Positions 9,001 through 21,000 of a stretch of 23,432 nt of DNA are shown one piece after another; positions within the stretch are counted from its first letter, which is position 1, and the number at the start of each line of letters is the position of its first letter. Source of the DNA: Escherichia coli (GTDB lineage: Bacteria > Pseudomonadota > Gammaproteobacteria > Enterobacterales > Enterobacteriaceae); the NCBI RefSeq assembly GCF_003334785.1, contig NZ_QOWV01000031.1; one strand, given 5' to 3'. The position numbers are program-made.

Positions 9001-12000
9001 AACAACATGGGTCACCTAATGCGCCACTCTCGCGATTTTTCAGGCGGACTTACTATCCCGTAAAGTGTTGTATAATTTGCCTGGAATTGTCTTAAAGTAA
9101 AGTAAATGTTGCGATATGTGAGTGAGCTTAAAACAAATATTTCGCCGCAGGAGTATCCTGGAAGATGTTCGTAGGTATTATTTTTCGGATAATCCTTAGG
9201 ATAACATGATAAACGTTACGGAATTATATTAATGGCAATTCACTAATAATATCAGCCAGCAAATTAAACATCTCACTGAATAAATGTTCGCAAAAAGGCG
9301 CAATTAACGGCATTAATGCCGCCATTAAAGAGATACCGACAGTCAGAGTTAATGGAAATCCAATAACAAAAATGGATAATTGCGGGGCCATACGATTAAG
9401 TAAGCCTAATGCCAGATTCAGGGTCAGCAGCAGAGTAATGAGCGGTAATGCCAGCATCAGCCCGTTAAGGAAAATCAAACTCCCTGCTTTGGTGAGTGCC
9501 AGAAACGCATTGCTGTTCAACGGTTCGCCACCAATTGGCAGGGTGTGAAAGGTATCGGCCAGCAGTGAAATCAACCATAAATGACCGTTAAATGTCAGGA
9601 ACAGCAGTAACGCCAGCATATCCATGATACGCGCTAAAACGGGCATATTGAGATGGCTGGCCGGATCGACAAACGTCGCAAATGACAGCCCCATTTGCAG
9701 ACCGATAATTTCACCAGCGGTTCGCACAGCGGCAAAGGCAAATTGCATGGTAAAACCAAGCGCAATGCCGATCAGGATCTGCTGCACGGCCAGCCACAGA
9801 GCAAAGAACGAAAAAACAGGAACATCGTTGGCAGGTAATGATGGGGCAATAGCGAACGTGATCATCATTGCCAGACCCAGTTTTACCCGTTTCGGCACGC
9901 TGCGTTCGCTCAGAATTGGTGCGGTAGAAATGAGCGCCAGCACGCGCAGTAACGGCCAGAAGTACAGGCTTAACCAGGAAAGCCATTGATCGCTTGTTAC
10001 CTGCATCATTGTACGGCCTACCCGATGATATACGGCAGGTTAGTGAACAAGGTGCGGACGTAATCCAGCAACAGATTGAGCATCCACGGTCCGGCAATAA
10101 TAATGGCGATAAATACGGCGATGATTTTCGGAATAAACGACAGCGTCATTTCGTTAATCTGGGTGGCGGCCTGCAAAATACTGATGATAAGACCCGTGAC
10201 CAGCGCCACCAGCAACAGTGGGGCAGCCAGTGCCAGCGCGACTTTCATCGCTTCAGTCCCCATCATCATGACCGATTCAGGTGTCATTTTGCCTCTCTAG
10301 CTGTAAAAGCTCTGCGCCAGCGAACCGACCAGCAATTGCCAGCCATCCACCAGTACAAACAGCATCAGTTTAAAGGGCAGAGCAATTGTGGCTGGGGGAA
10401 CCATCATCATCCCCAATGCCATCAACACGCTGGCAATCACCAGGTCGATAATCAAAAAAGGAATGAAAATCGTGAAGCCTATCTGAAATGCGGTTTTCAA
10501 CTCGCTGGTCACGTAGGCCGGGAGCAAAATGCGCATCGGCACAGCTTCAGGTCCCTGCAACGGGCCAGTATTCGCCAGTCTGGCAAACAACCCTAAATCC
10601 GCCTCGCGGGTCTGACGCAGCATAAACTCACGCAGCGGCTGCGCCCCTTTTTCCAGCGCCTCCTGCATTGAGATTTTCTCTTCGCTGAATGGCTGGTACG
10701 CATCGACATAAATTTTATCGATCACCGGCGACATAATAAAAAAGGTCAAAAACAGCGCCAGTCCCAGCAATACCTGGTTAGGTGGCGCGGAGGGTGTTCC
10801 CAACGCGTTACGCAATAAACCAAAAACAATGATGATGCGGGTGAAACTGGTCATCATCAGTAAAATTGCCGGAATAAACGTCAACGAGGTGATGAACACC
10901 AGCGTTTGCACCGGGAGCGACCAGCTTTGTCCACCGCCAGGCAGCGGCTGGCTGGTGATACCCGGCAGTTGCGCGAAGGCGAGGGGCGTAACCAGCCAGA
11001 GAAGGACAGGTGCGACAGACAACAAACGACGCATCAGGATCTCCCGCTACGCTTAAGCAAGTTTTTCATAACCGACTGAAAATCGGGCTGCGGTATCTCT
11101 TCCGTTGGTGCTGAAGGGGGAAGTTTATGCAGCAGATTGATTTGCCCTGCGGTAACGCCGAGCACCAGCCGTGCATCTTCCACATCGACCACCACAACCC
11201 GTTCACGTGCGCCCAGCGAAGCACTGGCGCTAATTTTCAGACCGTTAACGCCAGTGCGTTTAGGGACAAATCCCAACCGTTTTACCAGCCAGGCAGCAGC
11301 GAGGATCAGGGCAATAATGGCGATGAGTGCGCCGCTCACCTGCAGCAGTGGCGCAGCAGAAACCGGCGCGGAAGATTGCACAGTAGCGTGGTTATTCATC
11401 ACTAACGGCTCAGGCGGCGCATTCGCTCAGACGGAGTAATGATATCGGTGATCCGCACGCCATATTTATCGGCAACGACCACCACTTCGCCCTGGGCAAT
11501 TAAATAACCGTTGATCAGAATATCCAGTGGTTCGCCCGCCAGACCGTCCAGCGCCACGACGGACCCTTGCGTCAGACGCAACAGCTCTTTGATGGTCATC
11601 CGCGTACGGCCCAGCTCGACGGTCAGCTTGACCGGAATATCCATAATCAGGTCGATATCCTGCAACGTTCCGCTGACATCACCACCGCCAAATTGCTGGA
11701 ACACCGCGTCGGCAGCGCTTTTGCTGCTGGTTGATTTTTGTTCGCTCAAAGCTTCAGCCCACAGATCGTCCATTGCGCCGTTGTTGTCATCGGCCGGATT
11801 ATTCATGTCACTCATTTGGGCTGTTCCTCGTTCAGAGAATTTAAAATCGGGTTAATCAAATGTTCTATCCGTAACGCATACTGACCGTTGAGGGTGCCGT
11901 ACTGACTGGTCAGTACCGGAACGCCGTCAACATGAGCGATGATGCGATCGGGTTTTTCTATCGGCAGGACGTCGCCGGGTTTCAGTTTTAAAATCTGCGA

Positions 12001-18000: not shown

Positions 18001-21000
18001 TCGGTGCCTGTCAGGTTACTCATGATCGTTATTTATCCACTGGCGAATGACCAGCGCCACCACGCGCGGATCGTTATCAGACATTTCACGGATACGCTGG
18101 CTCATGACTTCTGCCCCCAGACGTTGGTTAGCGCGTCGTTGTTGGAGTTGTTCGTCTTTGCTCAGGCGGACTTCCACCGCATCTTCCACTTCCTCACGGG
18201 CCTGCGCCTGTTGCTGTACAGCTTTCATCGCCTCGGCGCGACGTGTTAACTGCGGGCGTACCGCTTTCCGCCACAGCAGCCACGCCACCAGCAGTACCAG
18301 CAACCAGCGACCGGCAGCCAGCAACTGATCGATAAACGCTTGCTGTTGCCAGAACGGCAGTTCTCCGCCGCTTTCGTCACTGCTATTGAACGGCGAGTTA
18401 ACGACATTGAGCGAGTCACCGCGTTTTTCAGAAAAGCCCATCGCCTCGCGGGTCAGATCTTCAATTTGCTTCATCTGTTCGTTGCTGAGAGGCAATGGTT
18501 TACCGTCTGGCAAGGTTTTGTAATTCACCACTACCGCGACTGACAGACGTTGCACATCGCCCACGTTCATTTTGGTATGACGAATGGTGCGATCGACTTC
18601 GTAGTTACTGGTTTCATTCCGCTGTGTGCTACGCGGCCCGCTATTGCTGGTGGTGCTCGCCTGCTGCTGGCGGTTATTTTGATTTGCCGGAGGCGTGCTG
18701 ATTGGCGCGTTATTCGCAGGTGCCGGTTGATTCGACAACGCCCCCGGTACGCCGCCCGGATAACCGGAACCGCTTTGCTCGCTCTCATTAAGCTGGCGTG
18801 AACGAAGCGCCGCATGAGATTCATCACCGTTAGGGCGATACTGTTCTTCCGTTTGTTCTTTACTGGCGAAGTCCAGTTGCGCCGTGACCTGGGCGTGAAT
18901 ATTACTGTTACCAACAATTGGCGACAGGATCGCTTCAATACGCCGCTGAATCCGGCCTTCGACATCGCTGGCATATTTCAACTGAGCGTCATTAAGATCG
19001 CGCCCGCTGGTATTGGACTGGGTTAACAGATGTCCACCCTGATCCACCAGCGTGACGTTCCCCGGCGGCAGACCAGCAACCGCGCTGGAAACCAGATGTA
19101 CAATGGCGCTAATTTGCCCTTCATCGAGTGCGCGGCCGGGTAACAGATTTACCGTCACCGATGCAGAAGGGGATTTTTGTTCACGGACGAATAAAGACGG
19201 TTTCGGCATTGCCAGATGTACGCGCGCCCCTTTTACCGGGCCGATAGTTTCGATGGTACGAGAAAGCTCGCCTTCCAGCGCCCGCTGATAATTCACCTGT
19301 TCGCTGAACTGGCTGATACCAAACTTTTCCTGATCGAGTAGTTCGAAACCGACCGCGCCGCCTTTGGGCAAACCTTGTTGCGCCAGGCGCAGACGCAGCT
19401 CGTGAACTTTATCTGCCGGAACTTCAATAGCGCCGCTGGCTTCGCTGAAGCGGTAAGGAATATTCATTTGCGTCAGTTGGCTGACAATTGCGCCACCATC
19501 CTGATCGGAAAGATTGCTGAATAATGTGCGGTAGTCGGGGGCTTTCGCCCACAGGATCAGTGCGACCATGACCGCCACTGCCGCGGAACCGGCAACAATC
19601 AATGGAATTTTCGGATTCGCACGCAGGCGATTAAGCCACTCAAGAGATTTTGTCTGGGCTGCAGTCGCATTCATCGCGCACCTCGTGGCTGATTATGGAC
19701 AGCGTTATTGGCAAAGTGGAACAAGACTCACTCCCGGGTCAGCAAACTCGAAAAATTGACGCTGCCATTATTTGTGCTTTCGTTTTTTTCTATCCGCCAA
19801 TAAACCCGTTTTTTTGTTGCTATTTAGCGCCTTTGTCTTATTGACTTACTGGTAGGCTTTGCTACCAGAAATTATCCAGGAGACGAAAATGTCAGCGATA
19901 CAGGGGATTGAAGGGGTTATCAGCCAGTTACAGGCTACGGCGATGAGTGCGCGTGCGCAGGATTCACTGCCGCAACCGACCATTAGTTTTGCCGGGCAGC
20001 TGCACGCCGCGCTCGATCGCATTAGCGATACACAAACAGCTGCCCGCACGCAGGCAGAAAAATTCACCCTCGGTGAACCCGGCGTGGCGTTAAACGATGT
20101 GATGACCGATATGCAAAAAGCCTCAGTTTCTATGCAAATGGGGATTCAGGTGCGTAATAAGCTGGTGGCGGCGTATCAGGAAGTGATGTCCATGCAGGTG
20201 TAGGTTTTGTAACCTGTTGTTAATTACATCCCATCTGCCCGCGTGGGGCATGGATGGGGCAAACTCACCCTATTTCTGGTTTAAAATGGATACCTGATCC
20301 TGAAAGTTTTCTGCCATCCACGATCCGTAAACGCGATAACATGTTTTGTCTTCGCTTTGCTCATAGGAAGAGTGAACTCTTTTGTTAGCCTGGGGTTCCT
20401 TCTGATCATTATTGTTCCTGCCTTTATCTCTTGCCACGCTAGAGCCCCCTGGATACACATACACCAGGATGAAAACGGTGAGTTGTGTTCAAACTGTAGT
20501 ACAATTCTCTCCAGTATGAACAGGAAAGAATATGCTATGAACCCTTATATTTATCTTGGTGGCGCAATACTTGCAGAGGTCATTGGTACAACCTTAATGA
20601 AGTTTTCAGAGGGGTTTACACGGTTATGGCCCTCTGTTGGCACAATTATTTGCTATTGTGCATCATTTTGGTTATTAGCTCAGACACTGGCTTATATACC
20701 TACAGGGATTGCTTATGCTATCTGGTCAGGAGTCGGTATCGTTCTGATTAGTTTGCTTTCCTGGGGATTTTTTGGCCAACGACTGGACTTGCCAGCCATC
20801 ATAGGCATGATGTTGATTTGTGCCGGTGTGTTAGTCATTAACTTGTTGTCACGAAGCGCACCGCATTAAAAAATAATCATCCTTGAGATAACAGGAATCT
20901 GATTTGTGCATATTATGGCTAATGTTCGGGGCAACTTTATAATTATGATTGCATTTGCGCGATCATTGCGCCTTTTTGCATAATGAGATCAATGCACATC

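Follow-up and report, generated by a model that had tools for sequence, protein, structure and literature searches.

Overlapping and tightly spaced genes in the Escherichia coli fli operons as candidates for translational coupling

In the two large flagellar operons of Escherichia coli, fliFGHIJK and fliLMNOPQR, the start codon of one gene repeatedly lies on, or within a few nucleotides (nt) of, the stop codon of the gene before it. Does this arrangement tie the translation of a gene to that of its upstream neighbour, or does each gene start on its own, with the overlap being inert? We addressed this question with a 23,432-nt stretch of E. coli DNA from contig NZ_QOWV01000031.1 (RefSeq assembly GCF_003334785.1), referred to below as the window, which contains the chromosomal fli region with fliE on the plus strand and both operons on the minus strand. 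Translational coupling by termination–reinitiation between proteins that assemble together is the best explanation of the geometry, the conservation and the pattern of Shine-Dalgarno sequences described below, and such coupling probably operates at these junctions. The overlaps themselves are the already published, canonical E. coli layout and an instance of a well-described general phenomenon.

Junctions of two intact fli operons

The genes fliF-G-H-I-J-K and fliL-M-N-O-P-Q-R follow one another in this order on one strand, with fliE divergent, as was found in a 100%-identical RefSeq record, in K-12 and in a tblastn map. To place the genes, we shifted the RefSeq annotation of the best match, NZ_AP027595.1, by its offset of 501, and then recomputed starts, stops and junctions on the window sequence; coordinates given for the two operons refer to the minus strand. 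The gene for the MS-ring protein, fliF (552 amino acids; 18016–19674; TIGR00206, 791.6 bits), is the first of its operon and has a strong Shine-Dalgarno sequence. Its stop codon (18016–18018) lies in an 8-nt overlap, ATGAGTAA (18016–18023), with fliG, which encodes the rotor/switch protein (331 amino acids; 17028–18023; TIGR00207, 506.9 bits) and starts at 18023 without a Shine-Dalgarno sequence. The fliG stop codon (17028–17030) is overlapped by 8 nt, ATGTCTGA (17028–17035), by fliH, which starts at 17035 and encodes the export ATPase regulator (228 amino acids; 16349–17035). A single nucleotide at 16349 (TAATG) is shared by fliH and the export ATPase gene fliI (457 amino acids; 14976–16349), with a GGAG Shine-Dalgarno sequence located within fliH; both genes were assigned from RefSeq, the window sequence and NCBIfam. 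After an 18-nt gap follows fliJ (147 amino acids; 14514–14957), which has its own Shine-Dalgarno sequence and overlaps by 4 nt (ATGA, 14514–14517) with fliK, the gene for the hook-length control protein (375 amino acids; 13390–14517) and the last gene of the first operon.

A gap of 104 nt between fliK and fliL forms the operon boundary. The second operon begins with fliL (154 amino acids; 12821–13285), which is followed after 4 nt by fliM (334 amino acids; 11812–12816), a gene without a Shine-Dalgarno sequence. The latter overlaps by 4 nt (ATGA, 11812–11815) with fliN (137 amino acids; 11402–11815), and at the fliN/fliO junction, TAGTGATG (11397–11404), the curated ATG of fliO (121 amino acids; 11034–11399) leaves a 2-nt gap, again without a Shine-Dalgarno sequence. 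One nucleotide at 11034 (TGATG) is common to fliO and fliP (245 amino acids; 10297–11034), with a GGGAG Shine-Dalgarno sequence within fliO. The operon continues with fliQ (89 amino acids; 10018–10287), which has a Shine-Dalgarno sequence and lies 9 nt behind fliP, and fliR (261 amino acids; 9224–10009), 8 nt behind fliQ. The fliQ/fliR spacer (10010–10017, minus strand) reads GGCCGTACA here, compared with the 7-nt GCCGTACT of K-12, and the first two codons of fliR are ATG ATG here and ATG TTG in K-12.

An earlier note on this stretch had read overlaps of 8 nt for fliF/fliG and fliG/fliH, 1 nt for fliH/fliI, 4 nt for fliJ/fliK and fliM/fliN, and 1 nt for fliO/fliP, all of which are exact on the window sequence with curated starts. 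It had also listed a 1-nt fliN/fliO overlap, which arises only if the GTG at 11402 is taken as the fliO start. RefSeq and the curated K-12 annotation place the start at the next codon, the ATG at 11399, and relatives that lack the GTG keep this ATG (Citrobacter TAACGATG and TAATCATG, Escherichia sp. ESNIH1 TAAGCATG). The GTG was therefore ruled out as the fliO start on comparative grounds, and we regard the fliN/fliO overlap as unsupported. The same junction in Salmonella is likewise ambiguous as to which fliO start adjoins the fliN stop; Schoenhals, Kihara and Macnab reportedly wrote in 1998 of 'putative tandem starts' of Salmonella fliO (cited in PMC2947984). The E. coli candidates differ in being adjacent codons, GTG-ATG, so the protein would change by at most one residue. 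The fliN/fliO junction is still very tight.

All 13 fli open reading frames (ORFs) are full length, as the earlier note had stated, with ATG starts and no internal stop codons; fliE is likewise open and begins with ATG. Together with fliE, their lengths equal those of K-12 MG1655, with 97.1–99.0% nucleotide identity and 0–14 amino-acid differences, FliK being the most variable product. Every overlap junction matches K-12 base for base, the sole junction difference being the 1-nt indel in the fliQ/fliR spacer; gene order in K-12 MG1655 (fliFGHIJK, b1938–b1943; fliLMNOPQR, b1944–b1950) is also the same. Ten fli products were scanned against NCBIfam and all matched their own flagellar family, nine of them (FliF, FliG, FliH, FliI, FliJ, FliM, FliN, FliO and FliP) over their full length and with scores exceeding the curated cut-off. 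FliK, which carries that name in RefSeq, scored 344.5 bits, below its cut-off of 396, and FliL, FliQ and FliR were identified from RefSeq and K-12 identity. A megablast comparison of window positions 9000–20000 with 5,426 complete E. coli genomes detected the region in 5,321 of them; among the matches listed, at least seven complete-genome records were 100% identical across all 11 kb. Several complete genomes assembled independently of one another carry the identical sequence, which makes a frameshift from sequencing error unlikely. The suggestion that the locus appears functional thus stands as far as its intactness goes, and it is limited to the locus because motility also needs the flhDC, fliA, fliC, flg, flh and mot genes, which lie outside the window.

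The co-directional fli genes share mRNAs in the established K-12 transcription units (PMC4183435), and the promoter regions of both class-2 operons are present: the divergent fliE–fliF region, whose 214-nt spacer has 4 differences from K-12, and the class-2 plus sigma-28 region of fliL. The 104-nt fliK–fliL spacer is the same as in K-12 and contains the sigma-28 (FliA) promoter of fliLMNOPQR (13314–13341, minus strand), an exact match to the site published by Fitzgerald et al. 2014 (PMC4183435).

Eight of the 11 intra-operon fli junctions lie within about −8 to +6 nt (F/G, G/H, H/I, J/K, L/M, M/N, N/O and O/P), whereas I/J (+18), P/Q (+9) and Q/R (+8) fall outside. Genome-wide, 24% of unidirectional E. 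coli pairs (707 of 2,987) are found within −8 to +6 nt (Huber et al. 2023, PMC10666635), and against this value the 8 of 12 junctions of the fli operons in that range correspond to a binomial P = 0.002; against an assumed intra-operon baseline of 40%, P = 0.03. The enrichment of tight fli junctions is real but modest, as already described for complex subunits, which are 4.5-fold enriched among E. coli pairs at −8 to +10 nt (PMC10666635). In prokaryotes, by far the commonest co-directional spacing is −4, with −1 and −8 also enriched (Brown and Wade 2025 review, PMC12548453), and the fli overlaps fall exactly into these three classes. The individual spacings are already catalogued, since the supplement of PMC10666635 prints the K-12 distances: F/G −8, G/H −8, H/I −1, I/J +18, J/K −4, K/L +104, L/M +4, M/N −4, N/O +2, O/P −1 and P/Q +9. 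Its table for 1,695 species gives −8 for FliG@FliH (COG1536@COG1317, n = 659), −4 for FliH@FliI and −3.4 for both FliM@FliN and FliO@FliP.

Conservation of tight spacing across species

Tight spacing at these junctions extends well beyond E. coli. We assembled 80 loci from species-representative genomes of Enterobacterales, Orbales, Oceanospirillales, Pseudomonas and Burkholderiales, each anchored on FliI with a flank of up to 10 kb, located the fli genes by tblastn and then determined the spacing at each junction. Picking starts by homology proved noisy for FliK and FliO, and for FliH and FliI in distant taxa, and we replaced it by a test that is independent of start choice: a junction was scored as tight if the downstream gene had an in-frame, stop-free start at −14 to +6 nt from the upstream stop, with internal control junctions for comparison.

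Tight starts were kept at F/G in 44/44 loci of Enterobacterales and 32/34 of other orders, at G/H in 44/44 and 32/35, at H/I in 44/44 and 32/36, at M/N in 38/39 and 22/25, at N/O in 36/38 and 24/25, and at O/P in 38/38 and 22/25, which amounts to 88–100% at all six junctions. J/K was tight in 21 of 22 Enterobacterales loci, with too few loci to count in other orders. By contrast, the spaced control junctions had a tight start in 0–16% of Enterobacterales loci and 0–46% of those outside, with 7/44 and 16/35 for I/J, 0/41 and 0/21 for K/L, and 0/38 and 3/25 for P/Q.

The exact spacing behaves differently from one junction to the next. F/G overlaps by 8 nt in Escherichia, Citrobacter and Enterobacter, by 4 nt in most of the remaining Enterobacterales and by 11 nt in Burkholderiales; persistence of the overlap despite this varying length argues for selection on tight spacing rather than mere sequence inertia. 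In the Enterobacterales, H/I is spaced at −1 in 37 and at −4 in 7 of the 44 loci, M/N at −4 or −8 in 36/39 and O/P at −1 or −4 in 36/38. G/H is at −8 in 43/44 Enterobacterales and 30/35 other loci, and its motif TATGTCT(G/A)A, in which the fliH start meets the fliG stop, has kept its nucleotide sequence in gamma- and beta-proteobacteria alike, with Enterobacterales, Pseudomonas, Halomonadaceae and Burkholderiales among them. This frozen motif fits a dual-coding constraint exerted by the FliG C terminus (Y-V-stop) and the FliH N terminus (M-S). Exceptions to the motif include Pandoraea (TACGTGTAA) and Variovorax (TTTGTCTAA).

Shine-Dalgarno sequences, probable coupling and its rivals

How would ribosomes reach the starts at these junctions? 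Duplex energies with the anti-Shine-Dalgarno sequence were in the normal range, −5.9 to −9.5 kcal/mol, for fliF, fliI, fliJ, fliP, fliH, fliK, fliN, fliQ and fliR (−5.9 to −8.7 kcal/mol for the internal genes other than fliG, fliM and fliO), and weak for fliL (−4.3 kcal/mol). The 20 nt upstream of fliG (18024–18043), fliM (12817–12836) and fliO (11400–11419), all on the minus strand, contained no Shine-Dalgarno sequence by this measure, with energies of −3.1, +0.3 and −1.9 kcal/mol, respectively. These three starts lie at −8 (fliG), +4 (fliM) and +2 nt (fliO) from the upstream stop. In fliH, fliI, fliK, fliN and fliP, the Shine-Dalgarno sequence is embedded in the upstream gene.

Under translational coupling, a ribosome that ends the upstream gene would re-initiate at the adjoining start, or would unmask that start, and the downstream protein would then be produced in step with, and near, its upstream neighbour. 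The importance of coupling should be greatest for fliG, fliM and fliO, which have no Shine-Dalgarno sequence of their own and are the likeliest of the genes to rely on ribosomes coming from the preceding one. Since their Shine-Dalgarno sequences are embedded upstream, fliH, fliI, fliK, fliN and fliP can probably also start independently. Most of the candidate pairs are physical partners: FliF–FliG and FliM–FliN interact directly, FliH–FliI is a further such pair, and FliO is an assembly chaperone of FliP. FliH2–FliI forms a cytoplasmic complex (PMC4185386), and FliP is stabilised by FliO (PMC5542435). Coupling is reported to be most efficient at −4 to +3 nt (review PMC12548453), and when native 4-nt overlaps of E. 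coli were tested, four out of five were coupled (PMC6728339).

The fli junctions resemble pairs for which coupling is known, such as trpB-trpA and the hyfHI, astDB and menDH pairs tested by Huber et al. 2019, in being co-directional with spacings of −4, −1 or −8; in such pairs the Shine-Dalgarno sequence is frequently embedded in the first gene, and the two products frequently belong to one complex. They differ in that three fli starts are without a Shine-Dalgarno sequence, in that two consecutive junctions have the less efficient −8 spacing, and in that coupling at fli is what we infer from the layout.

Several points weigh against coupling. The subunit ratios are not all 1:1 (FliM:FliN is about 1:3 and FliH:FliI 2:1), so strict 1:1 coupling is not the whole story. 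The sampled species are related, and the conservation percentages therefore overstate the number of independent events. Predicted RNA accessibility, computed as the partition-function unpaired probability over −18 to +6, gave no clear sign that the putatively coupled starts are occluded: the percentile was about 23–26 for fliH, fliO and fliP, 79 for fliG and 90 for fliM, and coupled and leading genes were not separated. No experiment on these junctions emerged when the full-text literature was searched for translational coupling in combination with fliF/fliG or fliO. An 8-nt overlap re-initiates less efficiently than a spacing of −4 or −1 (PMC10666635), and ribosome profiling by Saito et al. 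2020, as relayed in PMC10666635, was taken to favour de novo initiation over reinitiation at overlapping E. coli genes.

The profiling data are also among the arguments for the main rival, neutral compaction, in which an overlap is an inert consequence of packing genes closely and initiation at every gene is de novo, from a ribosome-binding site of its own; stop-codon loss or start-codon drift would simply land on the nearest ATGA, TRATG or ATGNNTRA. Recognisable Shine-Dalgarno sequences inside the upstream gene are what this account expects at fliH, fliI, fliK, fliN and fliP, bioBF, one of five E. coli overlaps examined experimentally, did start de novo (PMC6728339), and the frozen G/H motif could be explained purely by the dual coding of the FliG C terminus and FliH N terminus. 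However, neutral compaction sits poorly with fliG, fliM and fliO, which are wholly without Shine-Dalgarno sequences, with the persistence of tight spacing at the same junctions between distantly related taxa, alongside consistently spaced I/J, K/L and P/Q, and with an F/G overlap whose length shifts yet whose junction never opens. We consider neutral compaction unlikely. That some overlaps are annotation artefacts, with true starts further downstream and genes that do not overlap at all, is very improbable. This does apply to the claimed fliN/fliO overlap, where the choice between GTG and ATG turns 1 nt of overlap into a 2-nt gap, and fliH and fliM have alternative in-frame start candidates upstream. 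For fliG, fliI, fliK, fliN and fliP, however, the annotated ATG has no in-frame competitor ahead of the upstream gene's stop codon; for most junctions, residue 1 of the E. coli protein is already aligned in tblastn comparisons with other Enterobacterales, so the N termini read from the annotated starts are conserved; the curated K-12 annotation agrees, and the NCBIfam models span FliF and FliG from residue 1. An artefact is thus largely excluded, save for the fliO GTG start.

Termination–reinitiation coupling can also be put in a stricter form, in which fliG, fliM and fliO are read only by ribosomes coming from fliF, fliL and fliN, FliG is made 1:1 with FliF, and the G/H overlap limits FliH. 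Taken jointly, these statements seem rather doubtful to us. If they were true, FliG would be produced strictly one-for-one with, and beside, the FliF C terminus with which it co-folds, and the frozen 8-nt fliG/fliH overlap (TATGTCTRA) would be a deliberately inefficient re-initiation site that holds FliH at a fixed fraction of FliG.

Genomic surroundings and meaning of the junctions

From its start, the window carries the end of an IS1 element, a truncated HD-domain gene, dcm, vsr, yedA, yedI, yodC, dgcQ, yedP, yodD, dsrB and rcsA, then the minus-strand genes fliR-Q-P-O-N-M-L and fliK-J-I-H-G-F, and finally, on the plus strand, fliE, emrE, ybcL and ybcM, after which an IS200/IS605 tnpA pseudogene begins. 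The flanks differ from K-12 in the IS1 within the yedJ-like gene and in the emrE-ybcL-ybcM genes and IS200/IS605 remnant past fliE, where K-12 has intG, yedN and yedL instead. Only the last 74 nt of IS1 are in the window (1–74), with an inverted repeat, GGTAATGCTGCCAACTTACTGAT, at 52–74. They abut the yedJ-like HD-domain gene (69–512), which has lost its N terminus and retains about 444 nt, compared with 696 nt in K-12. The earlier note had described the locus as apparently functional despite the nearby IS1; the element ends 9.15 kb from the fliR stop, about ten unrelated genes lie in that interval of roughly 9 kb, the gene that it disrupts is the yedJ-like one, and the fli genes are unaffected by it.

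Not mentioned in the earlier note is the overlap of dcm (579–1997) and vsr (1978–2448) on the plus strand, a known arrangement that, with 20 nt shared, exceeds all other gene overlaps of the window in length. An Rfam scan returned no RNA element within the fli operons, and its sole match in the window was the DsrA small RNA (7589–7675, plus strand; RF00014, 102.5 bits), which lies between yodD and yedP and is not among the features listed for the best-matching RefSeq record. Opposite fliG, a 310-amino-acid ORF initiated by ATG (16938–17870, plus strand) is broken in relatives, where the open frame spans 166 codons in E. albertii and 143–174 in Citrobacter. This and other long antisense ORFs were considered as genes; they are not conserved, so we regard them as artefacts of codon bias.

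Past fliE (20537–23432), emrE, ybcL and ybcM are genes of the DLP12 prophage in K-12. They are followed by an AT-rich remnant (22738–23116) that resembles the 5′ region of a porin gene (ompC/nmpC-like) and contains a signal-peptide stub, MKKLTVAISAVAAS, on the minus strand; the tnpA pseudogene starts at 23350. This arrangement was found at a coverage of at least 80% in 1,512 of 5,426 E. coli genomes, which makes the site next to fliE look like a variable spot with prophage remnants.

In practical terms, the fli locus in the window is intact and the distant IS1 is without effect on it. The discovery value of its junctions is small, and the locus neatly illustrates how the operons of multi-protein machines keep the genes of partner proteins at a spacing that is competent for coupling. 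The starts of fliG, fliM and fliO, which are without Shine-Dalgarno sequences, offer cheap test cases for such coupling.

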